From the NCBI GenBank assembly GCA_025453445.1, contig JALOQJ010000002.1:6249-70248 (forward strand): DNA of 64,000 nucleotides, written 5' to 3'. Below the pieces are notes generated by a model. It did not search any database. It had not been told where the DNA came from and worked only from the letters and a program-made list of their open reading frames with translations. Position numbers and translations under genes: made by a program. Of the stretch, positions 4,060-64,000 are shown one piece after another. The number at the start of each line of letters is the position of its first letter. The first letter of the stretch is position 1. The stretch comes from Candidatus Omnitrophota bacterium. GTDB lineage: Bacteria > Omnitrophota > Gorgyraeia > Gygaellales > Profunditerraquicolaceae.

Positions 4060-4126
4060 TTCTCTTCCCTCCTTTTTGTTTAATTGTTTGCAAAAAATTC
4101 CCAAATATCCTTCCCTCCTTTCAGTT

Positions 4127-29698: not shown

Positions 29699-29702
29699 AT
29701 TT

Positions 29703-44698: not shown

Positions 44699-44796
44699 AA
44701 AATTATCTAAAAATAGGACGTTTCAAACTGCTGAAGACATAGTATTAAAATTTAACATATCTTTACCTATAATTCAAGGCTTTTTCTCTTCTAAAC

Positions 44797-45512: not shown

Positions 45513-45523
45513 TATTTACTCCT

Positions 45524-45934: not shown

Positions 45935-45937
45935 TTT

Positions 45938-46909
45938 TTACTCCGCCCAAGACATACCGAAAATTGCCTGATTATCGGTGCCGATTCTAATTTGCTGTTT
46001 TGGATTATTTATTGGAGTTACATAAATACCTGCTATGCCATACCAAAGTTCTTTAGCATAAACTAAGTACTTTCCGTCGGGTGACCATCTAACAGGAAAA
46101 GACCCTCCAATACCAATAAGAGCTTTTTTGACAGGAATAATTAACTGGACTGTTTGCCTTGTTTTATCAAAAACATCCATAATATGATACCCGCCTATTC
46201 CTTCAAAAGCTAATTTAGCTCCATCCGGAGACCAAGCTGGCTGCATAGCTAAATCAATGTAATTCTCTATATTACCGGTAGCTATATCAACAACACAAAC
46301 ACCACTCATATTTCTTTCTTCCCTAAGGCCATTGCTTAGATACCTGCTAACTTTATTTTCATAGGTAAAAGCTATTTTTTTACTATCCGGAGACCAACTT
46401 GGCTGATCTTGTTCTGGTCTCATGCTGCTGACACGAGTAATTGCACGAGTATGACGATCGATAACATACAGCCCCTCTTTATTAGTATTTTGCATTATGA
46501 AAGCGATTTTTTTACCATCCGGAGACCAGGAAGGACATACCACGTTTGTTTCTTCACCTAAATCCAAAAACAATTTTACATTTGCGCCGTTTGAGTCCAT
46601 AATAAATAATCTGTTGGCCGAACTTTCATCTCGACTAAAAACTACCATACTGCCGTCAGGTGAAAAATAAGGATCCATTAAACCAAAATTATCTCCTGCA
46701 TTTTTTGAATATACTGTAATGTCTCTTTGTGAAGGTAATTCTATAACTTTAATAGTATGACCACCTAAACCATAAACAATCTCTCCCCGGAGGTCTTTTT
46801 TCATAAAAAAAGAGGTTACTACATCTTTATAAACTAAGAAATAGAAAATAAAATTACCTCCGATAATAAGAACTAAAAAAACAGCTAATATAATTTTTAA
46901 TATTTTCAT
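45938..46909 (-). CDS. TolB-like WD40/PD40 beta-propeller protein with N-terminal TM anchor
   Basis: Repeated [FW]SPDG[SK]x[IL][AV][FY] PD40 motifs (five copies). The start overlaps the end of the giant ORF, with a GGAGG RBS inside its last codons. Confidence 0.7.
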   Translation of the reverse strand: MKILKIILAVFLVLIIGGNFIFYFLVYKDVVTSFFMKKDLRGEIVYGLGGHTIKVIELPSQRDITVYSKNAGDNFGLMDPYFSPDGSMVVFSRDESSANRLFIMDSNGANVKLFLDLGEETNVVCPSWSPDGKKIAFIMQNTNKEGLYVIDRHTRAITRVSSMRPEQDQPSWSPDSKKIAFTYENKVSRYLSNGLREERNMSGVCVVDIATGNIENYIDLAMQPAWSPDGAKLAFEGIGGYHIMDVFDKTRQTVQLIIPVKKALIGIGGSFPVRWSPDGKYLVYAKELWYGIAGIYVTPINNPKQQIRIGTDNQAIFGMSWAE

Positions 46910-46912
46910 CTT

Positions 46913-49900
46913 TTACCTCCCAAAATTTGGCGGCGGCTGATACTTAGGTAGCTGTATCTGTGGCATTGGCTGATATTTTGGCATTGTCATCGGCTGAAAT
47001 TTTGGTAAATCAAATTTCATTGGCGGCGAATAAAAATTCGGCGTCTGAAATACCGGCTGTTGGAATCTCAACTGTTGAAAATCAACACGTGGCATTGAAA
47101 TATACATCGGCTGAGAAAATGGGTGCGTCTCATAATGAGTCCAGATTTGTGTTTCTCTGGTGCGCGTAGATAAATCAGGGTAGCTTATTTTTTGCTGCAT
47201 TTTAAATGAATAATTAAAATACGGATCTGATATAGCCCCGGACATGGAACGAGAAAATGCCATATTCGGCACTAATGGCTGCCATGGTAAATCAGTAATT
47301 GGAGTATTAATACCTATATCTTTAAGAAAACTATTGCGTCCACTATAACAATTTTTCCCTAAGCCGGGGATATTGAACATATTATATGATTCGATCTTAC
47401 CACGATAATTAGCTATATTATCAAAAACTTGCTTTGTGGCTATAGGATCAACTGTCAAGGTCCTATATATAACCAATCCATCCAAGATCTTTTTGTCTAC
47501 TGAATTATATATCCCCTCAGTTGCAATAAGTTTAGAAATATTTTTATCTTTAGGATTAAAATCTATTGTTTTTGTGAAATTATTGTAAGTAACGCTTATA
47601 AAGGTATGATCTTGGCCTGCTATTATAGGGCTATATCCTATTTCTACCCCCATATTTGGCCTAGACAACTCCTTCATCGACCAACCACTAATACGCGTAT
47701 TAGGTATTAATGAATTCTGGATCAAATCCTCTCCAATAAAACCAGCCCGATCAGGAAGATTTCTTAAAGCTGAAGCAAAAACATGTTTAGTAAAAGGATC
47801 CTGTTCCTGCTTCAAAGATTGGGCAAAAGTTTTTGTTAAATCAGGATTACCTGGTAATCTTCCGCCCAAAGACAAAGCTGAGCTTTGACGGATGCCAACA
47901 AAGTTGTCATGAAGGCCGGCAGAAAGTATCGGCATCATTTTAGGTGAATCAATTTTGCCTGCAACATCAATAGCACTCTGGCGCAACAAAGAATTATTGC
48001 TACGAAAATTATTCTCCACAATATTGATTATTTCCGGCGACTTAATTTTATCCAAATAGATAGTAGCGGTTGCCTGAACCATAGGAGTAGGGCCCTGACG
48101 AGCTAACCTTAGAAAAGAATCGCTTATAGCCGGATCTATGCCTACCCTACTATTTGTTACCCGCATTGCTGCTATCTGTAATTCCGGAGCAGAGCTAGAT
48201 AAAAAAGGCCTGCCCATCTCAATCGCCTTCGGGCAACTTGATTGGCTTAATCCTGACAAAATCCCCAACTGAGTATTCAACTCCCTTTCTTTTAACATCC
48301 GGCTAATCGGCTCTTCTAACCTAGGATAATCCCCGATATGTCCTGATAAAATACCTGCCGCTGTAGAAGACACATCCGGAGATGGATCGCTTAATTTCTG
48401 AAATGCTTTATCAAATACGACTGGATTCTCCTTAAACCAACCCGGCACAGGCAATAATGCTGCCTGCCGCACAGCAGGCTCTGGATCATCTAAAGCCCCG
48501 ATAATGATTTCTTTAGCCTGCGGTTCATTAAAATCTGCCAAACCATAAATTACCACAGAACGAACCTCTACATCAGGATCTTTAGCCATCCCTACTAACA
48601 CATCCAATACCTCTTTACCGCCGATTTGCGCCAATGCTACCGCTATCCTTGTCTTAGTTTCTTTTTCTATGCCCGGCTGTTGCAACACATCTTTTAGATG
48701 AGACACTGCCCGCACATCACCTAATTTACCCAAAGCTGTGATTGCCTCGTTGACGATATTTTGATTTTTACTATTCAAAAACGAAACAAACAACTCAAAG
48801 GTACGTGAATCATCCATATTCCCCAGTGCCCAAATAGATACACAACTCAATTTCTCGTCGCTGTCATAGGCTGATTTCATCAGCGCATCTGTTACTTTTA
48901 CTTCGGAGAATTGTCCCAAACGAGACGCCACATAAACTCGCATCTCTGAATTGTAGTTCTTCGCATCAGAAAGAATAGTAATAAGCTGATCTATGCATTC
49001 CGGCTCACCCAGCTCTGCCAAAGCCAATGCGGCATATATAGAGACATATTTTTGTATTTTGTCCTTACTATCCCGCGAATAGTTATTGGCGTATATTGGT
49101 AGTTTATACTGAACTTTTTGCTTCACAATTTCTTCTTGCGATAAAGCAAAGGAAAGAAATCCGGGATTAGATATTTTATATTGGCCCCTAAGGCCAGTAA
49201 TCAGAATATCTCTACCTGCAGGATTACCTGCTAATCCCAGATTCATTGCTGCGTAGAATGAAATTTTAAAATCATCATTCTTTAAGGCCCTTAAGTACCC
49301 TTGAATTAAATCATCTTTTGTAATACCGATTTTTTCATAAAAACTACCCTGAGGATCTAGAAATACCGGGTTGTATGTATTAAATCCTAAAGACGTCTGA
49401 TAATCCACTAACCCTTGTTTAGCTCTTTCATCAAAGGCATTTGATGATGGAAAAATCTCTGGATAGTACTGATAGATAAGACAATATTTAGAGAATGCAG
49501 CCATATAATTTCCTTTACTAATATTTACTTCTGCCAGCCTGCGGCTTTCCAAAGCATCTTCTAACGAGAAACCAATAAAACGGATATACTCATTACTATA
49601 AGTCTGTGTCTTGCTGTTTTTAGCTTTAGCGATAGGCAAATTCTCATAATCGATATCATGCATACACCCACCGGTTGTACTTATAAACCCTATTATCAAT
49701 GCTATTATAACTCCTTTTTGCGTAAATCGGAATAACTTAATTACTTTATTGGCAACGAGTTGCAGAGCTGGCCAAACTTGGCTGATTCCGGAAAATAACC
49801 AAGGGCATATTGAAAATATGATGAGAATTATTGGTGGGGCAAGGCTAAAAATACATTCCCCCACTTGCCCCAAGGCGCCGAAGTTATCCACATTGTAGCG

Positions 49901-52900
49901 GAGGTTTAAACCTCCGCTACATGCGGCAGAGGCGAATGAAGGCAGTAGCGTTGCGCCGATTACCAAACCAAAGCAAGCTACGCCCAGCATTGTGCAAACT
50001 TCGCTGATGCCTTTTTTGCCGCCGCCCCTGTCCGGGCCAGCGCCGGGATTTTGTTGTGTGAATTGTAAAGGCTCAAAAGATTCGGAACGCGGGTCATATT
50101 TTGTTATTTTATTATCGCAGTAATGAAAAAAGGTGGGGAAGTTCCCAAGCGGGAAAGATATCTCCGTTCTTTGCTTTGAGGTAAATTGAGCTAAGTCGTA
50201 TTCTTCAGAAGCAAATACCATAATAAACGACTTATCTCCTCTGGCTCCAGACGTCTGGTAAGTCCCCCTCAATAAACCCAAAGCGCCTAAAGCTTTTTCC
50301 TGCGTGTATGAATCTTTTATAAACGGATAATAGCCAAATACAAAAATTTGCTTATATTTTTCTGTTAATAATTCTGAAAAGTAATAAGGGCGTTGTTTTA
50401 TTAAATCGGCAAAGTTAATAACAAGGGTTTCTTGAGCATCATACCCTTCCTTTATTTTCTCTATATAAAGTTTGGCTACCTCATCAGGGACTCCAGAAAT
50501 GAAAACTGGCATTACATCTGAAATGGCCTTTTGGAAATCAGCGCATTTATGTAAGGCTAATTCTAATTTTTCAGCACTGCTTGACGAAGCGCCCCCGCCC
50601 GCGCCTCCGTCAATATTGTTATTTTGGGACACTTCTGGCATAACAAGGCTTTTAGCATTAGATTTAGTCTTAGGCCAAACTAATCCTATTTCATAGAATA
50701 GTTTTTTCAACTGAGAAGGCATATTCCTTAGAAGATATTTATATCCATTTATTGCGTTCGTAATTTCCAAACTCTCTGTTCCGATTATTTCAAAAGCTAA
50801 TTCTCCAGAGAAAAACTTTGAAATAAATTCTTTAAGTGCATTTTGTGGAGTATCAACTACAGACGATCCGAAAGTAACGCTGAAATATGCCAAAGAAAAT
50901 TTCTGATTTTTATTATTAAGCGCTTGTGTTTGATCTACTAATTGCCTAAATAAATCTTCATGATCTTGAGATGCTAATTCAATATAATCATGCAAAAGCT
51001 CATGACGGATATTTGGTTCTGTAGTTTCTTTCGGAACAACTACTACCCGCTCAAGATGTTTATTGAACTTACCATCAAAATATTCAAATACTCGTAAATA
51101 AAATTCTCTAATCTTTGGTTTATTAGAATTCTCTACACAATGCCTATTCAAATATACGCCCTTAGCCCAGAAAGCGTCCGGAGTATATTTTGATGCTATC
51201 TCCATAATATCCCTGAAGGATTCATCATCCGAAATCACCTCAACGCCCGGGATTATAAATCCATCCCTAATAATTCCCTTGGGGAGAATTGGGGACGTTT
51301 CTATTTTTCCGCCTTGTCGCATTTCCCTATCTTCCGGAATATGCTGAAATAACCGCCTGCCCCCGAACAAATCAAGTAACTTCTGCGACGGATAGACATC
51401 GCCCATTCCCCGCGGCTGGATAGGATTCTTATCTGGCCAACGCATATCAACATAATGCGGATTGCCCTTTTGAAACCCTTTCCCGCCCGCGCCGCCGCCG
51501 CGCGGAAATAGGCCTTCCGCCATTATCGCTGCGAATAATTTTGAGGTTTCAATTGCTGTCTCCAAAATAGAATCTCTGATATACTCTGCGTCCCTGCGGT
51601 ATGTATACACTGACAGGCCGAGTTTCTGCATAATTTCCCTTAACTCTTTCTTAAATTTCGGCCTTTCGCTTAATGACTGGAAACGCCAAAGGTATGCCCG
51701 AAGCAGATAATGGTACGGCGTCTCTGCGTAAGCATTATATATATTCGGACCACGCGTGGCCTTATCGCATACTTGAATTATATGCTCCGCATCCGAGTGG
51801 AAAGCCGATTTTCTTACTGCCGCTATTTTTTGATAAACACGCATCCAGCTCAATACTGCAATTTCGTCCTCTGTAATTTTAGGGATAACAACTTGGCCAA
51901 ATAGGACTTTCGTATCATGCGGTTTCATATACGCGCTTAAACTACCCTTAATATATTCGGGCGCAATATCCACAGGCACAAGATGTATATGAATAGGAAG
52001 ACCCTTGTATTCAAGAGGCACTCGCCATAAGGTTAAACTTCCGTAGGCCTTTCTCATATCTTCTACAACAACATAAGTGTCGTAATCATTAAAAGTATCA
52101 TTTTCCCCAGCGTAAACAGCTGAACCGTATGCGATTATTGCCTGTAAATTTGTTGCGCCAAATAAATCTATAATAGATTGTGTATAACCAAATTTTTTCT
52201 GCTCTTCTGTACTCAATTCTGCCCGGCGGGCTAAAGCAGCTACTCTTGCGCTTCCCGGAAATAACGCCTTCAAATAATCTATTAATTTAAGTTTTATTTC
52301 CATAAGCGCTTCTCTGGGAGAGAAAGAAGAGATATCCAGAAGCTCATCTTTCTCTATTTTTCCTTCAGTTATCAGTAAATTTCTTATTTTTAGATATTTC
52401 TCATATTTCTCCTGCGCCCGGGCTTTGTTAATTTCTTTTTCGTGTATTATCTCATCATCTAGTGGCCCAATTATCCTGTTTATCCCATTTTGTAAATCAA
52501 GTAACTCAAAATCAACCAAAGGTATTCCCGCAACCTCTGCTCCCATCAAACCTGTGGTTGTCCCACTACCTAAGATTTCTTCTGCTTCTCTATAATGAGA
52601 CCGGTCAAAATACCTTAACCACTTTAGCTCATCCACGGACCAAACTGTAAGTTCTATGTCCTTGGGCAACTGCTGCAATTGCGCATCTACAAAAGCCCAC
52701 GTCAAAGGCCCATTGACGATTATGCATTTATGCGTTACATTCTCTATTTTCTTTTTACCTTGCGCTAGTATAGAAACATCTGTATCAACTGGTATTTTAA
52801 GATTAATTGGAAGACTGTCTTTGTGCCGAGCCGAGCTAGTGACCCCACCCCCGCCCGCGGCGCGGACACCATCTTGAGCGTGCGCCGGGCTGCCGGCGGT

Positions 52901-55900: not shown

Positions 55901-58900
55901 CAAAATCGATTCAGGCGTTCCTTTTGGTAAGAAGACTAGATGCAGGTCCGTTATTTTGATAGTGTTCTTAAGTCCAATTTGGTCTGCAATAAATTTATTA
56001 ATACGGTCATGGAAGGCAGGGGTGTACGTCCCTTGAGTTCCTAAATTATTGGGCGAACTTTGTATAATAATGGGGACGGTTCTATTTTTTGCCCGCCAGA
56101 GGAATGTGGCAACTCCCACAAGGGAAAATAATGCGAGGATAGGCAATAGGTATGAAGAGAAAGCGGCTGTCTGCATTTCCTGTCCCGGCGGGGCGAGTGA
56201 GAAAATACATTCCCTAACCTGCCCCAAGAAGGCGCCAAAGTTATCCACATCGTAGCGGAGGTTTAAACCTCCGCTACATACGGCAGAGGCAATCGAAGGC
56301 AGGATTGTTGCGCCGATCGACGCGCCAAGGCAAGCTACGCCCAGCATTGTGCAAACTTCGCCGAGGCCTTTTTCTTTCCCGCCCGCGTTGCCGGCTTGAG
56401 CAACCTCTCTGATATCTTCATCGGTTCTTCTCCTAAAGGAAAAATATTCGAAACTATCCCGAATTACTAATAATTTTTTACTCAGTATTACAAAATCATT
56501 CATTACAGAATTAGTGAAAAAACTCTTTGGTACTTGGTTCCTTATCGTATTCAGTTTTGCTATCGAGCCTTCGCCTTTTGTTTCGACTTTAGGCTTAGCG
56601 TAAAATGTCTCAATATTTTCTTTGCTAGAGAAAATAGCCATTAATTCAGGTTGCCCTGTCAATAGTCGCACAAGTTCCTCAGATTCTGCTTTTAATGCAA
56701 TTAGTTGTTTCCTCTGAGATTTTCCTTTACGATATCCACTAAAAATGTCTTGAAGCGAACATTCAAGAGAAAGTAACTTATTCTCTAAATCGTGCAAGTA
56801 AATATATTCTCTAATAACTTTTTGGGCTTCGTAAGATAGCAATTGGCCTTCTATCTTCTTATTAAAATAAGTTTCAAAAAGCCGATTTTCCATTACAGAA
56901 ATACAGTTATTACAATACGACTGATAGGCATCAAAAGCCTGAAGTAAATCAATCCGTAATAATATATATTCGAGGGCTGCGGGTTCCTTATCTTGAAAAT
57001 ATTTTCTGATTTGATTATAAGCCTGTAGCCTATTCGCTAAATCAAATGGCTGTTCTGTGTTTTGCCTGACTTCGTTCATTACAAGATTCTTTAGTTTCTG
57101 CGGCAGACCGCATTTCCATGCAACCGGCACTTGTTCGGGGATATTTTTAATTTCTATTATTTTCATAATTGCTTGTTTAAAAACTTTTAACCTGCTTCCG
57201 CTCCCTCGCGGCCCTAGGTTACTTTTATAAAACCTCCAGCCCATAAAGCCGCTTCTCCCAAAAGGAAACGCCAACTCCATCGGGTCAAAACTCCTTAGCA
57301 GGTCGCCTTTCGCTGAGAATAACGAACTGTCATTATAACGAACACCGGGGCCTATTTTGCCACCCCCGCCCGCGCCGTTGGCCCGCGAACCGATCAAAGA
57401 GTCATCAGAATAGCCCACCCCATAGAGCGTACAGCCCTTCCAGGGTGCGAAGTCACCCTCTTCTTTCCGATCATCCAGCTCCACGTAATACCGGCGGGAA
57501 CCCTTAGGATCCTCTACCAGATAAACACTTTCCTCAAAACGTTTTGTCTCTGTTGCATCCATCACGGCGAAAAGGGCCTCCCGGATGATGGATGCGGGCA
57601 AAAATGGTGCCGCGTATCCTTTCACAACCACGGCCATGGCTGTGTCGAGATGGCGCAAAAATACTATAGCCCGTTCAGAAGACATTCTCCGGATAATCTC
57701 CAAAATCGCGTCATTCCTTTCTACCTCCGGAGCCAACTCGGCAATCAGTTTCTGCGCAGCCGCGTTACGAAGAACTTCATCCGGACGCGTAATCATCCGC
57801 GTCATGCTCATGATTTGCCTGTTATCAATACTATCGACCTTCATACATTTTTCGATATTCGGCATCTGCTCTTCGAGCCAATCCCGGGGCCAATAAAATC
57901 TCGGAGGAACTGCCAGCCCTTCCCGGAGAAAATCGCGCTGCAGTATCCTTAACTTTTTACCCGCCTCTTCCCGAGCATAACCCATTGCCTGAAGGCGGGC
58001 ATGGATCAATGGCAAATAATACCAAAACATGTTGAAAGCAGTCGTCTCACTTTCGTAAAGATACTTTCCCGCTTCCAAAGCTTCGACGGGATTAATACCT
58101 TCCAAGAAAGAAAGCATAGCCTCGCGGCTCTTTCGTCCGGCCAAAAGCGCGGCAACCGGTGAGGCAATGCAGTGATGCATTAACAAATCCCGCCCCTTTT
58201 CCTTTATAATCAAACCTTTAATTCCAACTAAAACATCGTCAGAGAGAAGAAGAGCCAGACGCAAGTCTCGATCATCAAGGTCAGCGCGATGAACGTCCGC
58301 CAATAAAGACGCGATCTTAGCTTCAGAGAGAATCTTCCGGGCCCGCTCTTCCATCCCGGACAACGACAGCCGCGAGAGAAATGCCGGACGTAAGACGCCC
58401 CAAGGATAGGAACTCTCAGGGAACCCTACCAATTCCACTAATGCAGGATACTGCTGCGCGTAATTAACAACTCCAATCTTTCCGTTTTGTACGGCCCTTC
58501 CAATAATATTATCCACTTCCACTGTAGTCAGATGGCTTGGAACTACCTGCAAGAGATCCCTAGTCAGCTTCTCCAGAGAATCCGCTCGCCCGACGGCGTC
58601 CTCTAACAGTACCAATCCTAAAGAACTCCATCCCGCGCATGTAAGAATCTCCTTAACACTAAAATTATGGTCGCAGAGAAATACATCATTAGGATAAATA
58701 TGATGCGCCTCATGATTGATAATCTGCCACATTAACTCTCCAATGTCATAGAGATGCTCCGTATTAAGGAAGGACGCCCGATAAAGAGGAAGGAATGACG
58801 CGCGATAAAGAAGCTTGAAAAGATGCGCCGGTAGAAGGGCTTCACCCTGAGCGGGCAGGGCAGCGGCCACGATGAATTTATTAGGGCCTTCGTAAGCCAG

Positions 58901-61900
58901 ATACATGTCGCGGGCATCCGGCTCTCTGCCCGAAGGATAATAAAACCGGTATCGTGTCCGGTGCATACTTTCAATTTCTTTCTTCGCATACTCCGGGTTA
59001 GAATAATGATGCTTACGGACATACTGTTCGACCATAGAAAAAATATTCGCAAGCTCGGGATCGCTGGACGCTTCGACAAAACGGCCCGTCTTTAAAAGAC
59101 CTTCGATTGTCCAATTCAATTCCTCTCTGCCATACCCGCGTGAAATGCCTTCGGCGCCCTGATCGCCGCCCCCGCCCGCGCCGCCGTCATCTATAGGCTG
59201 CATCAGGCTGCCTAAATTGACATCTGAATCATTCTTTCCTACTCCTATTGGCTGTAATAATATCGAGCGAGGCTGTCTAAATACGCAGGCATAAGCAAAC
59301 TGAACAGGATTAAAATGGTTTAAATAATAACCGACGAGCAACAATATGATGATACCAATTTCTACTTGACTTAGGGGCAAGCATAGTATATTCTTAAATG
59401 AAGGGAGGAAATATATGCATAAGAAACAATATATGGTGATTATTGAAAGGGACGAGGACGGTATGCTGGTAGGTACTGTTCCCAGCCTGAAAGGGTGCCA
59501 TAGCCAAGCTAAGAATATGCCAACTTTACTTGAACGAATTAAAGAGGCGATCCAGCTCTGCTTAGAGGTAGAAAATCCTAAAATTCCGTCTTTAGAATTT
59601 GTCGGGCTGCAAGAAGTTGAAGTTAATTGATGTCGAGGCTCACTCCCCTTAGGCCAACCGAAGCCATCCGCATTTTGACCCACTTGGGTTTTGAACGTAT
59701 CCGCCAAAAAGGCAGCCACATTTATTTTCGCCATCCTGACGGCCGCTCTACGGTAGTACCTTTTCACAAAGGCGAAGACTTGAGCAAAGGCCTTTTGAGC
59801 GCAATCCTTAGGGATATTGAGTTGCCGTGGGACGAATTTATTGCCGCTAAGTGAGTTCCTACAAACCCTGCAAGCCACCCAAATAAAAATCGTAACAGGT
59901 AAAATTAAAATCGCCGGATAAGCGAGCCTGTAAATATACTCTCCAACTTGCCCCAAGGCGCCGAAGTTATCCACATTGTAGCGGAGGTTTAAACCTCCGC
60001 TACATGCGGCAGAGGCAAATAAAGGCAGGATTGTTACGCCGATTACAAGAGCAAAACAAATTAAACCCAACATTGTGCAAACTTCGCCGATGCCTTTTTT
60101 GGCGCCCCCGCCCGAATTCTTTAACATTGGTCCCACGGCGCTATCTTTGACGAATCTTTCAAAATATCTAGTGAAATCAAAAATTCCTGATTTTGAAAGC
60201 GCTTCGGTAATACTGGTTTTAAAAATATTCCCTACTACCGCATATTTATTTCCCTTGGGAATCATAATATCTCCGCGAAAATCTACAAGAACACAGGTAC
60301 TTCTTTCGTCTGATTTTAGGCATGCTATTTTTAATCTACCAACGTATGGCAAATTAAAAAGACTCTGGGTAACTTCCTGAAAATCCTGGTCGCTGACAAA
60401 ATAGTCATTTGCAATAGCAGAAGTCGCTACTCTCCCAGCAGTAACATATTGCCTTATGCCCCACTCGGCGACACCCGCATCGGCAAGCTGTCGACCCAAC
60501 AAAGGCAAATCAGCTATATTCTTTTTTGTAGCCACAGTAGATACAGCTAATACAAATTTACGCCTGATTAATCTTGAGAATAGTTTCCAAACATTTCTGT
60601 ATTGCGCCCTAGATCTCTCTCCTCTTACAGCAACGTGGACATCTTCAGTAGAGCCTTCTATTGGGATAGACAATGTATCAAGATAAAGTTCAAGTTTATC
60701 AATTATATTTTCATCTAACAGATCACCAGAAATCTGCAGACAAACTAAAATTCTCTGCTCATAAATATATTTTATTATTTCAATAATATCGGGGATCAAC
60801 AAAGCGTCTCCTCCGGTGATAACCATAGACCTGATCCCTTGTTCCTTTAATTTATCTATAATGCGCTTTGCTTCTTCAAAAGTAATTTCTCTTTTGGAGC
60901 ACGAAGCTTTTCTCCGGAAACAAATCGGACAGTTCACTTCACAGGAATCAGTGGCATAAAATGCTATATGAATAATTTTCGGATTCTGTTGGTGCAGTTT
61001 TCCTATCTGCCCCCCGCCCGCGCCGCGGAGGTTTTTGTCAAACACTGGTCTGCTGTAGCCGGAAAGCAACTTGACATTTATCGTTGGAGGTGGTATGGTT
61101 ATATTGTGAGGTGAAAAACTATGAATAAAAATGCCCGGGAAGCCAAAAAACATTTGCAAAGACTGCGCAAACTTACTGCCAACACTCCATCCCCTTTCAA
61201 AGGGATGACTCTTGAAGAGGCAATCACGAAGATGCGAAAAGTTAGGGAACAGTTGTGGGAGGAAAAGCTTGCATTTCGTCCTTGATACAAATGAATTTGT
61301 GGGCGCGATAGGGTTAGTCAGGAACCCACCTTCGGAAATCCTTTTTAATATTCTCATAGAATCATCACCGCGGCATACCATCCATGTCCCCCGGCTGATA
61401 ATTAACGAAGTAAAACGCAATATTCCTCCTAATATTTTCACGGAATTCATAAAGATTGTCATACCGATTGTTATTATTGACGAAGATATCTTTGTGCCTT
61501 TTGAGATAGGCATAAAATATGAATCTGCCGGCCTAAAACCCGCGGACGCATTTATCGCCGCATACGCCGAATGGACGGGCGCTGAAGTATTAGCGACTGA
61601 AAACAGGCATTTTCTCTCCCGGCAAACCAATCTTCCTTTTAAGGTCATGAATGCCGAACACTGTCTTAAAATTTTAGGCAAATAATACCAAACCTTACCA
61701 ATCTTTCTTGACATCCACCATATTCCCTTTATTAGCTTATACACCGGCCCGGTAGGAAAATTGTAGAGAACAGACCCGCCCCCGCCCGCGCCGCCGCGTG
61801 GAGTTTTACTCTGCAATGCTTCATAAACATCAATCGCCTTTATGCCTAATTCTTTCCCTGCCTGAAAATCAGTAAACCTTCCGTTTATAACACTCATCCC

Positions 61901-63970
61901 TTCTGCGAATCCTGCGTCCCTATAAACAGCTCCTTCTGTTCCATACAACATCAAAAGCTCCAAATAAGGAAGCATCGCTATTTCAAGCATGGTTGAAGCC
62001 AAATGAGCAATTTTACCCGGTTGAGCAGGCATATTTGGTATCAAGTAGAAAATCGACTCTCCATAACCGACTCTTACCGGTTTATCATAAGAAGTTACTT
62101 TTTCATCTAACCCAACAACCACAGTTTTATCCGGCCTGACAAATTCAAAATTTCCACCGGCGTTAATCGCTACATCCACAAATACGCGGCGCTTGGGAGA
62201 TCTATCACTTATTTCTATAATTAATTCTTTATTGATGGTAACGGGCGCTTTCCTGCCGGGAAGTGATGCCGCTCCGACAACTGCGTCAGCCTTTATCAGG
62301 GCATCTTTTATCTTCCGCTGCTGGGAATCCGAGAGAACCTCTAATCTGCCGCTAGCTATTTCTTCCCTAAATATCTCCCGGATATCATCCAAGTTTTCGG
62401 ATAGATCAGTAAGCGTAACCGTAGCGCCCAAGAAAAACGCTGCTCCACAGGCAGCCAAACCAACGGTGCCTGCTCCGGTAATCAACAGGTGTTTTCCTTT
62501 AAGGTTTTCATCATCCAGAGAATAACTATAATGCATAATGTTAATGTGTAAAATCCCTTCCCTGCGCTTAACATCCCCTATAACATCACTGCCGGAAACT
62601 CTCTCTTCGTTCTCATTCAGATAAATCAACGCCTGAAAAACTGCCTCAATACCGGAAACAATATTCATTGCGTCTAAACAGACGCGGGTTTTCCCCTTGC
62701 GCACTTTTATTCGGCTGATCCAGTGAGGAATAATATTAAGCCCCCAAGAATCCATAAAATTTGGATTAAATAATAAGCAGGTATGCGCGTCTGCCTCAAT
62801 TTCCTCTAAGGCAAGGCAGCTTACTTTTGACTTGAGGATCTTTTCAGTCATCTCTTTATCAGAAGCAAAATTAAAATAACTAGCCAGGATTTTACCTGCC
62901 CCAAGATAGGCTAATTCATTATCCATAGGTGCATTGACTTTTAAAATTATAACTTCTTTGCCCTCTTCAACTGCTCCTTCTCCTATCTTATCCAACTGTT
63001 CCCTGTCTGCTGCTATTTTCGCTCCGAGCCTTTCATAATAATCATCATTTATCCCGCTTAAGGATCCGGCCTTAGACTCAACATAAATTTCCAATTTGAT
63101 ATTTTTTTCTTTAGCAAATTTCAGAAGTTTATCCACAGCAAGAGACAGCCCGACCCTTCCTTCATTAGGCCTAATTTCCCGCGGCACAAGAATTACTGTG
63201 CCGGTTTTTTTAACAGTTTCAAAAGTGGGTACGAGTAATTTACGGCTACCGGAAGAAATCAATCTTTCTAACTGGCTGGGGGTGCCGTCTTTCTTTTTTG
63301 TCACTATTGCGCCAAGTGTCCTGCATTCCTCAATTATTCTAAGAAGAGTTCGAAGGCAAGCCTCAGGCAAATCTTTCCGCGAAACATCCTGTGCAGTAAC
63401 AAAAGATTCTCGCCGCCATAAATGCGCACCATACGTCCCAGCTACTTTAAAAAGCCCCTGCAAATTTTCTCCTAGTATAGAGATAACTTCTCGGTTAAGA
63501 TGGTTGCCGGCAATACAAAAAAGAATATCCCACTGAATCTTGCCAACAGGAGCGGGTAATCTTAATACATGAAAGCCCCATCCCGTCTCATTATTAAATG
63601 GCGCTAAGGCTTCTAAAATCGGCCTTAAGAATTCCGCTTCTTCTAATGAAGGCGCTTTGCCAATTGAAAGCAAGTGCGGACGGCCGGTAGAATCAAGCCC
63701 GGTTACTACCGGGTCATCAGCTGCTATACAAATAGATATACCGGATATATTTGAAGGCCCTTCCTTTGCCACCAACTGGCCCGGAGCATCTACTTTCACT
63801 ATAGCTTTACCCGGTGGGCCTGCCGGCTTGCCCGCGCCCGCGCTGGCGGGATTTTCCCGCGCCGAGCTGTTTGAGGTTTCGGAATTAGCCGGCTCCGGTA
63901 GTAAACACTGTTGTGTATCTCCTAATAGATCTTCATCCTTTATAATATCGATATGGTCAAAATCTATCAT
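46913..63970 (-). CDS. giant 5,685-codon open reading frame. A modular polyprotein-like fusion of ~13 unrelated cassettes joined by GGAGGG-encoding GC-rich motifs. The N-terminus is still open at the window edge.
   Basis: No stop codon for 17,058 nt on the minus strand, and the frame remains open to nt 64000. Module order N-to-C (higher to lower coordinates): unknown N-terminal region + AlaDH/PNT-like Rossmann domain (LLITGAGTVGLAACG); antisense of the PIN toxin-antitoxin cassette; radical SAM domain (CEVNCPIC, GGDALL); TM-anchor repeat; antisense of the hicBA cassette; unknown; unknown; TM repeat; unknown; TM repeat + extra TMs; mini-module; NTase-like (GS...DYD); HExxH (HELLH); unknown; TM repeat + HEAT repeats + Pro/Gln-rich tail. 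Whether it is translated as one product is not established. Confidence 0.5.
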   Translation of the reverse strand: MIDFDHIDIIKDEDLLGDTQQCLLPEPANSETSNSSARENPASAGAGKPAGPPGKAIVKVDAPGQLVAKEGPSNISGISICIAADDPVVTGLDSTGRPHLLSIGKAPSLEEAEFLRPILEALAPFNNETGWGFHVLRLPAPVGKIQWDILFCIAGNHLNREVISILGENLQGLFKVAGTYGAHLWRRESFVTAQDVSRKDLPEACLRTLLRIIEECRTLGAIVTKKKDGTPSQLERLISSGSRKLLVPTFETVKKTGTVILVPREIRPNEGRVGLSLAVDKLLKFAKEKNIKLEIYVESKAGSLSGINDDYYERLGAKIAADREQLDKIGEGAVEEGKEVIILKVNAPMDNELAYLGAGKILASYFNFASDKEMTEKILKSKVSCLALEEIEADAHTCLLFNPNFMDSWGLNIIPHWISRIKVRKGKTRVCLDAMNIVSGIEAVFQALIYLNENEERVSGSDVIGDVKRREGILHINIMHYSYSLDDENLKGKHLLITGAGTVGLAACGAAFFLGATVTLTDLSENLDDIREIFREEIASGRLEVLSDSQQRKIKDALIKADAVVGAASLPGRKAPVTINKELIIEISDRSPKRRVFVDVAINAGGNFEFVRPDKTVVVGLDEKVTSYDKPVRVGYGESIFYLIPNMPAQPGKIAHLASTMLEIAMLPYLELLMLYGTEGAVYRDAGFAEGMSVINGRFTDFQAGKELGIKAIDVYEALQSKTPRGGAGGGGSVLYNFPTGPVYKLIKGIWWMSRKIGKVWYYLPKILRQCSAFMTLKGRLVCRERKCLFSVANTSAPVHSAYAAINASAGFRPADSYFMPISKGTKISSSIITIGMTIFMNSVKILGGILRFTSLIISRGTWMVCRGDDSMRILKRISEGGFLTNPIAPTNSFVSRTKCKLFLPQLFPNFSHLRDCLFKSHPFERGWSVGSKFAQSLQMFFGFPGIFIHSFSPHNITIPPPTINVKLLSGYSRPVFDKNLRGAGGGQIGKLHQQNPKIIHIAFYATDSCEVNCPICFRRKASCSKREITFEEAKRIIDKLKEQGIRSMVITGGDALLIPDIIEIIKYIYEQRILVCLQISGDLLDENIIDKLELYLDTLSIPIEGSTEDVHVAVRGERSRAQYRNVWKLFSRLIRRKFVLAVSTVATKKNIADLPLLGRQLADAGVAEWGIRQYVTAGRVATSAIANDYFVSDQDFQEVTQSLFNLPYVGRLKIACLKSDERSTCVLVDFRGDIMIPKGNKYAVVGNIFKTSITEALSKSGIFDFTRYFERFVKDSAVGPMLKNSGGGAKKGIGEVCTMLGLICFALVIGVTILPLFASAACSGGLNLRYNVDNFGALGQVGEYIYRLAYPAILILPVTIFIWVACRVCRNSLSGNKFVPRQLNIPKDCAQKAFAQVFAFVKRYYRRAAVRMAKINVAAFLADTFKTQVGQNADGFGWPKGSEPRHQLTSTSCSPTNSKDGILGFSTSKQSWIASLIRSSKVGIFLAWLWHPFRLGTVPTSIPSSSLSIITIYCFLCIYFLPSFKNILCLPLSQVEIGIIILLLVGYYLNHFNPVQFAYACVFRQPRSILLQPIGVGKNDSDVNLGSLMQPIDDGGAGGGGDQGAEGISRGYGREELNWTIEGLLKTGRFVEASSDPELANIFSMVEQYVRKHHYSNPEYAKKEIESMHRTRYRFYYPSGREPDARDMYLAYEGPNKFIVAAALPAQGEALLPAHLFKLLYRASFLPLYRASFLNTEHLYDIGELMWQIINHEAHHIYPNDVFLCDHNFSVKEILTCAGWSSLGLVLLEDAVGRADSLEKLTRDLLQVVPSHLTTVEVDNIIGRAVQNGKIGVVNYAQQYPALVELVGFPESSYPWGVLRPAFLSRLSLSGMEERARKILSEAKIASLLADVHRADLDDRDLRLALLLSDDVLVGIKGLIIKEKGRDLLMHHCIASPVAALLAGRKSREAMLSFLEGINPVEALEAGKYLYESETTAFNMFWYYLPLIHARLQAMGYAREEAGKKLRILQRDFLREGLAVPPRFYWPRDWLEEQMPNIEKCMKVDSIDNRQIMSMTRMITRPDEVLRNAAAQKLIAELAPEVERNDAILEIIRRMSSERAIVFLRHLDTAMAVVVKGYAAPFLPASIIREALFAVMDATETKRFEESVYLVEDPKGSRRYYVELDDRKEEGDFAPWKGCTLYGVGYSDDSLIGSRANGAGGGGKIGPGVRYNDSSLFSAKGDLLRSFDPMELAFPFGRSGFMGWRFYKSNLGPRGSGSRLKVFKQAIMKIIEIKNIPEQVPVAWKCGLPQKLKNLVMNEVRQNTEQPFDLANRLQAYNQIRKYFQDKEPAALEYILLRIDLLQAFDAYQSYCNNCISVMENRLFETYFNKKIEGQLLSYEAQKVIREYIYLHDLENKLLSLECSLQDIFSGYRKGKSQRKQLIALKAESEELVRLLTGQPELMAIFSSKENIETFYAKPKVETKGEGSIAKLNTIRNQVPKSFFTNSVMNDFVILSKKLLVIRDSFEYFSFRRRTDEDIREVAQAGNAGGKEKGLGEVCTMLGVACLGASIGATILPSIASAVCSGGLNLRYDVDNFGAFLGQVRECIFSLAPPGQEMQTAAFSSYLLPILALFSLVGVATFLWRAKNRTVPIIIQSSPNNLGTQGTYTPAFHDRINKFIADQIGLKNTIKITDLHLVFLPKGTPESILLKLAAIENLMTRTYPPFMERHNLVLLEGDEMHPYYIIKDGDEYVLAHAGTAGRLEENIYMTRQLFEVLSVETLAVILEEEGYHAGDRNTARHHDEIPVSEKYHPEWHRQILQIVEQEIKNSSRFHSPEAVRREKHLLKEGKKHYLERITSINEDQRWTSNKGEQEKRMQELLNEILCHKNDQDAAIKQMVSVFNETGLSKEVLVKKLQYAITIKNDNDRRWYRQYLLEKWQRLLVWKKKYAVMRCQKAAEIKIEGDTVKLIAAQQDGRFDYPGGGLFQITVSGAQNVPLYVAEDHQLLLPVVKILQRQNKLGNRLIVLNNDFHDDTGATVMPDYKTGIPLRPSLETVMRYAEKTMHEGGIFTALVRENDLSELFWIPSLRSLFGRFVYFNKSSPVLKVAYEEHVSTHRGPRGPGVGIPFDAKTAKGYYLVSYDSPVKRIRKTANMTFNIVPENGLNALIWPQDNGQYVLSLDLDAFNEMPAYRFEEEIQNFMQILQGLSFRFSAVFICRSSSYMVYQQSKVFANEILNCMVAMLNKYDILQKSTGTKNKRGGAGGGAKKGIGEVCTMLGLICFALVIGATILPSFASAACSGGLNLRYDVDNSGALAQIKECIFSFAPPEVIVIILLVIAILYFLDAKNKLSAVSCDMPGYNPNEYPQSSIRAFNIKHHSSGALENKQPYPSGKIERHFQKIRVGNKLRLCQDKIASIYKAEKERRVSFRWVVYLVSIATLSCPGILFYFVLDDRKAASGLGVASTLVLFWAVAAIYYIINVLKFKRSYKEQKIGLGKIRQDYEAIEDCSHFFQKREIRPYVNKTLDVAIVPYRLISRIIVEEGPVEKQLSGENRHFEFWFHSCAGKQEVDVEILDFDGHEEKLFVRDILKGEDGVSFNPVEARGYTEETIQESAPFIIKFVGGCISIENHAVYSLTLEYLVSGGGAGGNRDRINQDMHYKDIPSLGGFDGITWPELMGREFPLGGNILDFRLAHHRNMGALGKKRGRGETAGSPAHAQDGVRAAGGGGVTSSARHKDSLPINLKIPVDTDVSILAQGKKKIENVTHKCIIVNGPLTWAFVDAQLQQLPKDIELTVWSVDELKWLRYFDRSHYREAEEILGSGTTTGLMGAEVAGIPLVDFELLDLQNGINRIIGPLDDEIIHEKEINKARAQEKYEKYLKIRNLLITEGKIEKDELLDISSFSPREALMEIKLKLIDYLKALFPGSARVAALARRAELSTEEQKKFGYTQSIIDLFGATNLQAIIAYGSAVYAGENDTFNDYDTYVVVEDMRKAYGSLTLWRVPLEYKGLPIHIHLVPVDIAPEYIKGSLSAYMKPHDTKVLFGQVVIPKITEDEIAVLSWMRVYQKIAAVRKSAFHSDAEHIIQVCDKATRGPNIYNAYAETPYHYLLRAYLWRFQSLSERPKFKKELREIMQKLGLSVYTYRRDAEYIRDSILETAIETSKLFAAIMAEGLFPRGGGAGGKGFQKGNPHYVDMRWPDKNPIQPRGMGDVYPSQKLLDLFGGRRLFQHIPEDREMRQGGKIETSPILPKGIIRDGFIIPGVEVISDDESFRDIMEIASKYTPDAFWAKGVYLNRHCVENSNKPKIREFYLRVFEYFDGKFNKHLERVVVVPKETTEPNIRHELLHDYIELASQDHEDLFRQLVDQTQALNNKNQKFSLAYFSVTFGSSVVDTPQNALKEFISKFFSGELAFEIIGTESLEITNAINGYKYLLRNMPSQLKKLFYEIGLVWPKTKSNAKSLVMPEVSQNNNIDGGAGGGASSSSAEKLELALHKCADFQKAISDVMPVFISGVPDEVAKLYIEKIKEGYDAQETLVINFADLIKQRPYYFSELLTEKYKQIFVFGYYPFIKDSYTQEKALGALGLLRGTYQTSGARGDKSFIMVFASEEYDLAQFTSKQRTEISFPLGNFPTFFHYCDNKITKYDPRSESFEPLQFTQQNPGAGPDRGGGKKGISEVCTMLGVACFGLVIGATLLPSFASAACSGGLNLRYNVDNFGALGQVGECIFSLAPPIILIIFSICPWLFSGISQVWPALQLVANKVIKLFRFTQKGVIIALIIGFISTTGGCMHDIDYENLPIAKAKNSKTQTYSNEYIRFIGFSLEDALESRRLAEVNISKGNYMAAFSKYCLIYQYYPEIFPSSNAFDERAKQGLVDYQTSLGFNTYNPVFLDPQGSFYEKIGITKDDLIQGYLRALKNDDFKISFYAAMNLGLAGNPAGRDILITGLRGQYKISNPGFLSFALSQEEIVKQKVQYKLPIYANNYSRDSKDKIQKYVSIYAALALAELGEPECIDQLITILSDAKNYNSEMRVYVASRLGQFSEVKVTDALMKSAYDSDEKLSCVSIWALGNMDDSRTFELFVSFLNSKNQNIVNEAITALGKLGDVRAVSHLKDVLQQPGIEKETKTRIAVALAQIGGKEVLDVLVGMAKDPDVEVRSVVIYGLADFNEPQAKEIIIGALDDPEPAVRQAALLPVPGWFKENPVVFDKAFQKLSDPSPDVSSTAAGILSGHIGDYPRLEEPISRMLKERELNTQLGILSGLSQSSCPKAIEMGRPFLSSSAPELQIAAMRVTNSRVGIDPAISDSFLRLARQGPTPMVQATATIYLDKIKSPEIINIVENNFRSNNSLLRQSAIDVAGKIDSPKMMPILSAGLHDNFVGIRQSSALSLGGRLPGNPDLTKTFAQSLKQEQDPFTKHVFASALRNLPDRAGFIGEDLIQNSLIPNTRISGWSMKELSRPNMGVEIGYSPIIAGQDHTFISVTYNNFTKTIDFNPKDKNISKLIATEGIYNSVDKKILDGLVIYRTLTVDPIATKQVFDNIANYRGKIESYNMFNIPGLGKNCYSGRNSFLKDIGINTPITDLPWQPLVPNMAFSRSMSGAISDPYFNYSFKMQQKISYPDLSTRTRETQIWTHYETHPFSQPMYISMPRVDFQQLRFQQPVFQTPNFYSPPMKFDLPKFQPMTMPKYQPMPQIQLPKYQPPPNFGR
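49850..50046 (-). repeat. TM-anchor/linker repeat copy 4 (~190 bp), containing a 26-bp perfect palindrome at 49895-49920 and a degenerate linker motif at 50018-50046
   Basis: Encodes GAGPDRGGGKKGISEVCTMLGVACFGLVIGATLLPSFASAACSGGLNLRYNVDNFGALGQVGECIFSLAPP. More than 85% nucleotide identity to copies 1-3. Confidence 0.85.
50591..50607 (-). repeat. linker motif copy (CCCCCGCCCGCGCCTCC), encodes DGGAGGGAS
   Basis: GC island in AT-rich DNA. Same orientation and frame as the other copies. Confidence 0.8.
51482..51505 (-). repeat. linker motif copy (CCCGCCCGCGCCGCCGCCGCGCGG), encodes PRGGGAGGKG
   Basis: As above. Confidence 0.8.
52848..52865 (-). repeat. linker motif copy (CCCCCGCCCGCGGCGCGG), encodes RAAGGGGV
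   Basis: As above. Confidence 0.8.
53086..53104 (-). repeat. degenerate linker motif copy (CCACCAGCACCGCCGCCAG), encodes SGGGAGGN
   Basis: The protein-level linker is conserved while the DNA is more diverged. It bounds a ~70-aa mini-module between this copy and the one at 52848. Confidence 0.6.
54063..54252 (-). repeat. TM-anchor/linker repeat copy 3, containing a palindrome at 54106-54131 and a full linker motif at 54234-54252
   Basis: Encodes KRGGAGGGAKKGIGEVCTMLGLICFALVIGATILPSFASAACSGGLNLRYDVDNSGALAQIKECIFSFAPP. Confidence 0.85.
56205..56386 (-). repeat. TM-anchor/linker repeat copy 2, containing a palindrome at 56252-56277 and a partial motif at 56377-56386
   Basis: Encodes AGNAGGKEKGLGEVCTMLGVACLGASIGATILPSIASAVCSGGLNLRYDVDNFGAFLGQVRECIFSLAPP. 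Confidence 0.85.
57363..57377 (-). repeat. linker motif copy (CCCCCGCCCGCGCCG), encodes ANGAGGGGK
   Basis: As above. Confidence 0.8.
59169..59185 (-). repeat. linker motif copy (CCCCCGCCCGCGCCGCC), encodes DDGGAGGGGDQ
   Basis: As above. Forms the boundary of the inverted hicBA cassette. Confidence 0.8.
59415..59630 (+). CDS. hicB: HicB-family antitoxin (UPF0150)
   Basis: MHKKQYMVIIERDEDGMLVGTVPSLKGCHSQAKNMPTLLERIKEAIQLCLE is the canonical HicB N-domain. GAAGGGAGG RBS and a TTGACT-type promoter upstream. Encoded antisense within the giant ORF. Confidence 0.8.
   Translation: MHKKQYMVIIERDEDGMLVGTVPSLKGCHSQAKNMPTLLERIKEAIQLCLEVENPKIPSLEFVGLQEVEVN
59627..59854 (+). CDS. hicA: HicA-family mRNA interferase toxin
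   Basis: LTHLGFERIRQKGSHIYFRHPDGRSTVVPFHKGEDLSKGLLSAILRDIEL is the YcfA/HicA fold signature. 4-nt overlap with hicB. Confidence 0.8.
   Translation: MMSRLTPLRPTEAIRILTHLGFERIRQKGSHIYFRHPDGRSTVVPFHKGEDLSKGLLSAILRDIELPWDEFIAAK
59932..60114 (-). repeat. TM-anchor/linker repeat copy 1, containing a palindrome at 59978-60003. The linker motif is truncated after CCCCCGCCCG, followed by GAATTC, at 60105-60114.
   Basis: Encodes NSGGGAKKGIGEVCTMLGLICFALVIGVTILPLFASAACSGGLNLRYNVDNFGALGQVGE, then runs into the antisense of hicA. Confidence 0.85.
61021..61036 (-). repeat. linker motif copy (CCCCCGCCCGCGCCGC), encodes LRGAGGGQIG. The radical SAM module begins immediately after it.
   Basis: As above. Confidence 0.8.
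61120..61286 (+). CDS. small putative antitoxin partner of the PIN toxin
   Basis: ATG preceded by GAGGTG RBS. A TTGACA-17-TATGGT promoter lies ~40 nt upstream. 54 aa, basic and helical (MNKNAREAKKHLQRLRKL...). The stop overlaps the PIN ORF. Antitoxin role inferred from gene order only. Confidence 0.45.
61267..61685 (+). CDS. vapC: PIN-domain toxin (VapC-like)
   Basis: HFVLDTNEFV ... IDEDIF ... ADAFIAAYAEWTGAEVLATENRHF are the PIN acidic-residue motifs. The track ORF starts at 61212 (TTG), but a start near LHFVLD is more likely. Antisense within the giant ORF. Confidence 0.75.
61779..61796 (-). repeat. linker motif copy (CCCCCGCCCGCGCCGCCG), encodes PRGGAGGGGSV
   Basis: As above. Forms the boundary between the AlaDH-like module and the inverted PIN cassette. 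Confidence 0.8.
63831..63850 (-). repeat. degenerate linker motif copy (CCCGCGCCCGCGCTGGCGGG), encodes SAGAGKPAGP
   Basis: The N-most copy, ~40 codons into the track ORF. Confidence 0.5.
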
Positions 63971-64000
63971 AGAAAAACCATCAAGGTCCTTCCTGTTTAT

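Follow-up and report, generated by a model that had tools for sequence, protein, structure and literature searches.

The last 17.1 kb of the DNA analysed here, a 64,000-nt stretch of contig JALOQJ010000002.1 from a Candidatus Omnitrophota bacterium (hereafter the window), hold the 3' part of a giant gene encoding one long polypeptide, in which a short glycine hinge (GGAGGG) connects complete modules of enzyme size, most of them unrelated to each other. The hinge is a lineage-specific linker that has been copied at the nucleotide level, and the reading frame stays open across two toxin-antitoxin (TA) operons located antisense to it. The best explanation, which we hold with moderate confidence, is a translated mosaic giant gene whose modules have been gained, lost, or swapped through recombination that preserved the frame and took place at the hinge and spacer repeats, because the hinge, besides being copied at the DNA level, coincides with the limits of homology to other giant genes.

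46913..64000, minus strand: giant gene, 3' 17.1 kb (stop-free frame; JGI gene call)

On the minus strand, the frame 46916..64000 runs through 5,695 codons of ~42%-GC DNA without meeting a stop, and each of the remaining five frames holds between 213 and 487 stops. The stop codon of the gene occupies 46913-46915 and the frame is unclosed at the window edge. An altered genetic code was ruled out as the cause of the open frame, given that neighbouring genes terminate normally. On JGI contig Ga0392394_0000319 (54,049 nt), the gene is called at 9,533 aa, a lower bound since the call stops 34 nt short of the contig end; the window covers the 3' two-thirds of this gene of at least 28.6 kb, with the 5' 11.5 kb (~3,840 codons) lying beyond it. 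The JGI contig shows one mismatch to the window in 20,972 nt (35,938-56,909), at 50501 inside module 11, where the JGI sequence (L002) carries A and the window C on the coding strand (G on the plus strand). Two Logan unitigs (window 43,847-47,043 and 56,335-59,975) match at 100%; the second, L084, passes unbroken through two hinges, module 4, and the hicBA cassette, and both of its ends fall inside spacer repeats. The gene directly downstream of the giant gene (45938..46909) is likewise identical in sequence on Ga0392394_0000319 and on SRR12684589 Logan unitigs, and window 59,976-64,000, which holds the vapBC cassette, is represented in a single assembly only. Hinge junctions are thus reproducible between assemblies; for the order of segments between the four spacers we rely on the assemblers, and every permutation would remain in frame.

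Thirteen Gly/Ala-rich junctions (aa 53, 736, 993, 1297, 1606, 2209, 2538, 3251, 3634, 3714, 4168, 4465, and 4657) divide the protein at intervals of 237-2,138 nt:

63830..63843, minus strand: degenerate hinge (aa 53, SAGAG; GCGCGGGCGCGGGC), from junction peptide and 14-mer scan
61775..61795, minus strand: hinge GGAGGGG (GGC GGC GCG GGC GGG GGC GGG)
61010..61024, minus strand: hinge GAGGG (GGC GCG GGC GGG GGG)
60101..60112, minus strand: partial hinge GGGA (GGC GGG GGC GCC)
59165..59185, minus strand: hinge GGAGGGG
57359..57376, minus strand: hinge GAGGGG
56378..56389, minus strand: degenerate hinge NAGG (AAC GCG GGC GGG)
54230..54250, minus strand: hinge GGAGGGA
53084..53101, minus strand: Gly hinge GGGAGG, diverged in DNA (GGC GGC GGT GCT GGT GGC)
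52844..52861, minus strand: hinge AAGGGG
51482..51499, minus strand: hinge GGGAGG
50588..50608, minus strand: hinge GGAGGGA
50018..50032, minus strand: degenerate last hinge DRGGG, whose L090 ortholog is canonical (CGAGGG)

The core GCG GGC GGG (or GCG GGC GCG) is found in a single codon phase in 10 of these junctions, those at aa 3634, aa 4657, and in part aa 1297 having diverged in DNA. An earlier note on this DNA had described 5,685 codons open to the edge, punctuated by thirteen in-phase sites at ~0.24 to 2.1 kb from each other. Its codon count holds when made from the first in-window ATG (63970), and its spacing agrees with ours; thirteen junctions do exist, though shared core and phase extend to ten of them. 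The same note had proposed a motif scan of both strands: its regular expression returns eight matches, all on the plus strand and hence G-rich on the coding strand, so that the motif occurs in one orientation only and nowhere outside the gene within the window. A search with the 14-mer GCGCGGGCGGGGGC, allowing up to two mismatches, also yields eight matches (0.29 expected), all on the coding strand and within the giant gene, with none in the other 47 kb of the window. Third codon positions of the hinges are 83-100% G/C, compared to a third-position GC content (GC3) of 0.41 in other genes. The chance that eight independent A-G-G sites would all use GCG-GGC-GGG is ~1e-13 to 1e-15 under this genome's codon usage. 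The hinge itself is a G-rich element of 12-21 nt without dyad symmetry or an attC-like imperfect palindrome, no Rfam family was found in a scan of the window, and Arg precedes 6 of the 13 copies. A GlyGly-CTERM or C39 leader-type motif was considered for the hinge and rejected for pattern mismatch.

Besides the hinge, a second repeat marks the module borders. Four modules open with a homologous unit of ~200 nt (68-91% identity) encoding a two-helix membrane hairpin, which in four cases follows the hinge:

59914..60114, minus strand: spacer copy 1, hairpin with two transmembrane (TM) helices, KKGIGEVCTMLG...CSGGLNLRY...APP+TM2
56188..56388, minus strand: spacer copy 2, two-TM hairpin
54043..54243, minus strand: spacer copy 3, two-TM hairpin
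49831..50031, minus strand: spacer copy 4, two-TM hairpin; its orthologs are the last spacers of L090, L087, and L085
59977..60004, strand-neutral: perfect 28-nt palindrome TGTAGCGGAGGTTTAAACCTCCGCTACA inside spacer copy 1
56252-56278, 54107-54133, and 49894-49921: further copies of the palindrome

The perfect 26-28-nt palindrome GTAGCGGAGGTTTAAACCTCCGCTAC is conserved at 100% in all four spacer copies, with variable flanking codons. It codes for CSGGLNLRY, the loop between the two TM helices, and as RNA it would form a hairpin of ~17 bp (z -3.8 to -5.3) that includes GGAGG and CCUCC. A role as intrinsic terminator was ruled out, as neither strand has a T-run after the palindrome, and so was a Shine-Dalgarno (SD)/start-codon unit, for which the spacing is 17-19 nt. 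The palindrome was not found in the spacers of the orthologs described below or in viral contigs, and the spacer alignment had no match in the genome contigs or viral contigs searched; its sole metagenome match (L001) is spurious, being antisense to an M3 peptidase gene. Homologous-protein searches with the spacer and with the ORFan module 4 gave no match either.

To place the gene among its relatives, seven syntenic loci were located via homologs of the protein encoded next to it (NCBI MUC39_00815, Candidatus Omnitrophica bacterium), and at most the final 10 kb of each was compared. All seven carry a giant gene in the same position, with 39,962 aa in L085 and at least 11,024 aa in L094. All of them share a C-terminal module of ~1,000 aa with the present gene, at 30-55% identity (L090, 55%), while in the stretches compared the cargo upstream of it is unrelated among them. 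L090 is the most informative ortholog for the hinge: its last-junction hinge reads TGC GGT GCG GGC GGG GGC (CGAGGG), and homology sets in at this point, with unrelated sequence upstream. A second L090 hinge, AGC GGC GCG GGC GGA, is followed by a spacer hairpin, and L090 has kept the hinge core although the spacer peptide next to it has diverged. In a set of 93 loci, the present gene and the ortholog L090/L091 are the only ones to contain the 12-mer GCGGGCGGGGGC. A further relative, MCU0652444.1 (partial, 4,348 aa, Omnitrophota), shares only hinge peptides, three spacer hairpins, and a 30-aa element (VLYxFPxGxVYKLIxGI), and differs in its cargo (pseudouridine synthase, TPR, and DHH). Homology to MCU0652444.1 is therefore confined to hinge, spacer, and this element; homology to L090 starts at the last hinge or spacer.

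Other lineages carry other linkers. L087 uses GCC GCC GCG CCG, or AAAP (PAAAP-type; L087:1509-1529, 2573-2604, 3433-3462, and 4052-4067), and L092 uses GCC GCC TCG CCG, or AASP (L092:3446-3461 and 6766-6780); both are conserved in DNA, GC-rich, and C-rich on the coding strand. From these sequences, linkers look homogenised within a gene and different between lineages. The idea that the L087 linker is the reverse complement of the hinge was dropped as a trivial likeness, both being GGC/GCC-type repeats. Spacer copies inside one gene are 60-91% identical in DNA (here, L087, and L085), and the spacer hairpin family is multi-copy in L085, L087, and L090. L085 (JGI 3300029288, the 714-kb contig Ga0265297_10000019) has at least six spacer hairpins and no Gly hinge in its last 10 kb; a radical-SAM-like CxxxCxxC and an HPr-like segment are found among the modules there.

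Log-odds of codon usage favour the giant frame throughout, except at aa ~750-990 and ~1400-1560. Both low-scoring segments are antisense to intact plus-strand TA operons, and the plus-strand frame scores higher there:

61071..61099, plus strand: sigma-70-like promoter (TTGACA-17-TATGGT, TG-extended, 10/12) before the vapBC-like operon
61121..61285, plus strand: putative 54-aa antitoxin open reading frame (ORF), 17-nt overlap with the PIN gene, SD GAGGTGA
61269..61685, plus strand: PIN-domain (VapC-like) toxin, likely start TTG 61269, SD GGGAGG; longest ORF from 61212
61686..61774, minus strand: short conserved element SVLYNFPTGPVYKLIKGI..., shared with MCU0652444.1 (P0021)
59415..59630, plus strand: hicB-like antitoxin gene (PF15919, E 3.9e-6; called as gene on L084)
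59627..59854, plus strand: hicA toxin gene, codon-aligned with the giant frame (PF07927, E 3.9e-20)

The PIN toxin matches PF01850 above the gathering score (E 1.2e-5), and the 54-aa VapB-like ORF matches no antitoxin family. The hicB and hicA genes overlap by 4 nt, and the TA genes have good SD sequences. Upstream of hicB there are two weak promoter matches (9/12), and the scan is no richer in promoter-like sites than shuffled sequence. In domains, antitoxin-first order, and overlaps, the hicBA operon agrees with HicAB type II systems, and the vapBC-like operon, with its putative antitoxin, resembles VapBC systems; unlike these, both lie in full within the bounds of a far longer stop-free ORF, to which they are antisense. 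Each TA cassette has a hinge on its promoter side and a conserved spacer element on its far side. Read on the plus strand, the hinge region 61775-61801 presents a GC hairpin followed by AGTTTTACT (61786-61801), a terminator-like arrangement ~100 nt past the PIN stop, and judging from this sequence transcription of the TA operon could also terminate at this copy of the hinge. An antisense protein rebuilt from the odd segment of MCU0652444.1 (P0021) had no Pfam match, with our own PIN gene recovered as control.

Nested operons of this kind allow for a test of frame continuity. With the TA proteins fixed and their synonymous codons resampled from this genome's usage, the probability of meeting no stop in the giant frame is 0.14 for PIN, 0.064 for the VapB-like protein, 0.16 for HicB, and 0.008 for HicA; when non-coding cassette sequence is shuffled, the values are 0.20, 0.0068, and 0.30. 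The product of the seven values is ~5e-9, over ~450 antisense or non-coding codons, and continuity of the giant frame itself is therefore under selection. These statistics suggest that selection keeps the whole frame translatable, even across the TA operons; among the evidence at hand they speak most strongly for translation through the operons, and the Omnitrophota giant gene is real and probably translated.

The modules joined by the hinge can be assigned in part:

61796..63193, minus strand: alanine dehydrogenase (AlaDH)/PNT-like module (aa 270-735; Pfam), C-terminus abutting the hinge
60113..61009, minus strand: complete radical-SAM module, viperin-like
57377..59164, minus strand: ORFan module 4 (596 aa), HEAHH motif
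51500..52843, minus strand: module 9, nucleotidyltransferase-like motif (GS...DxD)
46916..49830, minus strand: C-terminal module (HEAT repeats and C-terminal domain), 30-55% identity with the seven syntenic orthologs

The radical-SAM module is covered end to end by the prokaryotic viperin profile (positions 3-261 of 262), with a PADLOC E value of 6e-19 for pVip and 52.6 bits for NCBIfam viperin_w_prok, which is under the cut-off of 180; it may represent an antiviral-type enzyme fused into the giant protein. Homologs of module 9 are Omnitrophota proteins of 420-650 aa or portions of longer ones, and those of module 10, which shows an invariant HExxHD and a zincin-like model, occur only in Omnitrophota proteins, standalone or within long proteins. 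The remaining modules are ORFans by profile and homolog searches, and no module matches a peptidase family in Pfam or NCBIfam. At least 12 hydrophobic TM-like segments were found, the four two-helix hairpins among them (of 14 windows over the cut-off, one is the AlaDH Rossmann loop and two fall in antisense-translated sequence). Composition is heterogeneous along the gene: module 4 has 49% GC and a GC3 of 0.51, while its neighbours have 37-44% and 0.27-0.34, and other genes of the window 41.8 ± 2.2% GC. Module 4 also contains the only tandem array found, a 24-nt duplication (1.9 copies, 58766-58811) encoding LYRASFLP-LYRASFL, and the C-terminal HEAT part also matches the PADLOC model HEAT-ARM_XIII.

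The gene is an Omnitrophota giant gene of the described 'multi-enzyme' class, and its 17 kb without a stop are explained by membership in this class. Omnitrophota giant genes reach about 147,000 codons, carry numerous TM segments, and are found next to type II secretion system (T2SS)/type IV pilus, GH2, and sugar import genes, and those of the multi-enzyme class are tiled with many unrelated Pfam domains, radical SAM and HEAT included (10.1101/2023.11.21.568195; 10.64898/2026.06.07.730766). Phylum, very long ORF, enzyme tiling, TM segments, neighbourhood, and the 39,962-aa syntenic ortholog all connect the present gene to Omnitrophota giant genes and archaeovorin-type proteins. At 9,533 aa or more, it is under the size cut-offs of both papers, namely ≥10,000 aa (10.64898/2026.06.07.730766) and >30,000 aa (West-Roberts et al., 2023, 10.1101/2023.11.21.568195). 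SecA_DEAD and C39 domains are typical of full-length members, and the N-terminus of the present gene lies beyond the window. The earlier note had stated that no system with this architecture is described, a claim that has to be withdrawn given that an Omnitrophota giant multi-enzyme gene in its usual context belongs to a published class. Word searches of the two papers brought up no apparent mention of a nucleotide-conserved inter-module hinge or of hinge-delimited homology, and intact antisense TA operons inside the ORF are not reported there; a literature search found no description of such hinges or of nested TA operons. The nucleotide-conserved hinge with its homology breakpoints, the unrelated cargo of orthologs, and antisense TA operons in an ORF that is selected to stay open thus appear to be new.

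How could such a gene arise? We propose that recombination at the hinge and spacer repeats would add, remove, and exchange modules without loss of frame, likely through homology-driven exchange together with gene conversion, the latter keeping the copies alike. Exchange would take place as it does at the conserved borders of vls cassettes or polymorphic toxins. By analogy to TA cassettes in chromosomal integrons, the two TA operons may help to protect this repeat-rich gene from deletions. The earlier note had argued for a DNA-level process, and synonymous identity, the core in L090, homology breakpoints at hinge and spacer, and differing cargo of orthologs all speak in its favour. Its description of the flanking modules as mutually unrelated is correct for most of the cargo; it fails for the four modules that share the ~200-nt spacer and for the two segments that are antisense to TA genes.

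Several well-studied systems share the principle. In CDI (contact-dependent inhibition)/Rhs polymorphic toxins (VENN, PxxxxDPxGL), the 17-bp repeats of Borrelia vlsE, and the R64 shufflon, segments are exchanged in frame at conserved borders. As in those systems, where it is used for swapping, a short in-frame sequence conserved in DNA marks the borders of constant and variable coding segments here. However, the segment exchanged in them is a single one, terminal or central, supplied by silent copies, whereas the present gene has a dozen boundaries, and no silent cassette store or recombinase was identified in the region examined. Inversion is excluded, since all repeats are direct. A different comparison is offered by the Ala/Pro or Pro/Thr linkers of 2-oxo-acid dehydrogenase E2 chains and cellulase PT-boxes, which are flexible, inevitably GC-rich, and recurring. 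The PAAAP linkers of L087 and the AASP linkers of L092 resemble this type; the hinge, by contrast, has fixed synonymous positions in at least eight copies and in a second lineage. Duplication of a domain together with its linker is not the source of the hinge copies, because the cargo on either side is unrelated.

A number of observations weigh against a mosaic formed by recombination. Identity of the hinge across lineages comes down to two L090 sites, and with a third-base background of 45% at conserved 4-fold sites this cross-lineage signal is moderate (~1e-3). In their last 10 kb, four orthologs are without such a linker and two have other linkers, and the hinge is therefore lineage-specific rather than a universal assembly site. 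Change points in GC3 lie only roughly near hinges (2 of 7 within 15 codons), and in the 47 kb downstream a scan of ~23 out of some 38 ORFs turned up no recombinase. At 12-21 nt, the hinge is short for RecA-dependent exchange. The cargo that we call unrelated might sit elsewhere in the much longer orthologs, of which 10 kb or less were compared, and the 5' 11.5 kb of the giant gene and its upstream region lie beyond the window. Lastly, the three assemblies, which probably share reads, show no structural variant, excised circle, or other module order.

A static multi-domain gene is an account that we find possible yet doubtful. Its modules would be old and immobile, and the DNA of the hinge would be conserved for a role in expressing a very long gene, with copies kept alike by selection and occasional gene conversion. 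Possible roles include RNA-polymerase pausing or antitermination, a G-quadruplex or an SD-like (GGGGG) translational pause for folding, and an mRNA processing signal. Strict strand polarity, occurrence in the giant gene only, roughly regular spacing, and a hinge GC3 of about 1.0 would be expected for such a signal, as would the retention of the core in L090 next to a diverged spacer peptide; GC-rich, DNA-conserved linkers in L087 and L092 suggest a general property of linkers. Yet polarity varies by lineage, with a G-rich coding strand here and a C-rich one in L087 and L092, which argues against a single strand-specific signal, and Rfam finds no family. Moreover, a static gene leaves the homology breakpoints at hinge and spacer, the cargo next to them that differs between close orthologs, and the heterogeneous composition unexplained.

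It is about equally conceivable, and compatible with a mosaic origin, that the product is a polyprotein in which the Gly hinges serve as processing sites, so that a precursor would be cut into enzymes and membrane anchors. The modules are whole proteins from first to last residue, as seen in the AlaDH profile that ends at the hinge and in the near-complete viperin match, and the same short peptide, in six cases preceded by Arg, is present at every boundary. The cut could be made by the embedded module 10, for which the HExxHD motif and the predicted zincin-like fold would be suitable, or by a C39 double-glycine peptidase in the N-terminal part beyond the window. C39 or S8 peptidase domains are frequent in published Omnitrophota giant proteins, for which self-cleavage has been proposed by the authors (10.1101/2023.11.21.568195; 10.64898/2026.06.07.730766). 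However, the GG motifs lack a preceding leader-like pattern, the modules of the window gave no peptidase family match in Pfam or NCBIfam, and cleavage alone does not account for identity at the nucleotide level.

Integrons provide the model for a further alternative, in which a dedicated recombinase would act at the hinge core and insert or excise circular stop-free cassettes in frame, including reversed TA cassettes already adapted to an open antisense strand; we regard such site-specific cassette capture as improbable. Integrons carry IntI, attI, and Pc, and their attC sites are imperfect palindromes of 57-141 nt with conserved R and L boxes. TA cassettes, promoter-bearing and some of them reversed, are typical of large chromosomal integron arrays and are thought to stabilise the array against deletion. 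Similar to sedentary chromosomal integrons, the present locus combines unrelated, often ORFan units with a direct repeated site and interspersed TA cassettes, some reversed. These cassettes have their own promoter (for hicB, only weak matches) and a hinge on the promoter side, and the core recurs in a second lineage and, as a peptide, in a different giant gene. Unlike in integrons, the forward modules have no start or stop of their own, they share one frame, and the site itself is translated, only the reversed TA cassettes being autonomous; the sole palindrome is perfect and located inside spacer coding sequence, and the core lacks dyad symmetry and attC-like structure. Neither IntI nor another integrase or recombinase was seen among the downstream ORFs scanned, the far sides of the TA cassettes meet spacer elements instead of hinges, several hinges are degenerate, and the site is missing in four orthologs. 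The integron-like logic that the earlier note had put forward cannot be upheld, there being no attC-like site, no separate cassette genes, and no integrase among the genes scanned, although the analogy survives. In a bolder version, and one that is only slightly less improbable, the core GCG GGC GGG GGC would be the recombination site of a dedicated giant-gene-remodelling system of one lineage, whose stop-free cassette pool would include reversed TA operons with an antisense strand that has evolved to stay open, which would let them reside in a translated giant ORF and protect it against deletion, an integron-like logic with a single polypeptide as output.

It is very unlikely indeed that the frame stems from a chimeric or wrongly ordered assembly, or that this long ORF does not yield a single translation product: the 200-nt spacers with their identical palindrome do break de Bruijn unitigs (L084 ends in two of them) and a gene caller on a short unitig chose hicB and hicA over the antisense giant frame, but the JGI contig and the Logan unitigs agree with the window over the stretches compared, L084 is continuous over hicBA, module 4, and a pair of hinges, misassembly could not produce 5,695 codons without a stop that include ~450 antisense or non-coding ones (P ~5e-9), permuted segments would stay in frame, and the syntenic orthologs carry the same kind of gene.

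Giant genes are recent discoveries, and the locus addresses both their origin and their end-to-end translation. The stop-free frame across the TA operons provides sequence-level evidence for selection on frame continuity. Hinges at breakpoints, together with complete turnover of cargo, lead to a testable model of growth by in-frame accretion or exchange of modules. TA operons nested antisense in a translated bacterial ORF would be unusual overlapping genes and suggest addiction-based gene stabilisation.

MnmG of the window has its best matches in Candidatus Omnitrophota metagenome-assembled genomes (64-70% identity), and all named homologs of giant-gene modules are from Omnitrophota. The rest of the window holds ordinary chromosomal genes (MnmG, ribonucleotide reductase, and LacI- and ROK-type regulators) as well as GH2 enzymes, a sugar ABC transporter, PilZ proteins, a PD40 protein, and a type IV pilus/T2SS cluster comprising PilM, PilO, a secretin, two GspE/PilB proteins, and GspF. 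This neighbourhood of giant gene, PD40 protein, PilZ, sugar ABC transporter, GH2, and type IV pilus/T2SS is kept at the seven syntenic loci. A 1,368-aa protein with GGDEF, AAA_16 ATPase, and HEAT repeats (25670-29776, minus strand) adjoins the pilus/T2SS genes, and PilZ-domain proteins are encoded further along, at 44797-45549; the presence of GGDEF and PilZ proteins suggests control of the locus by c-di-GMP.

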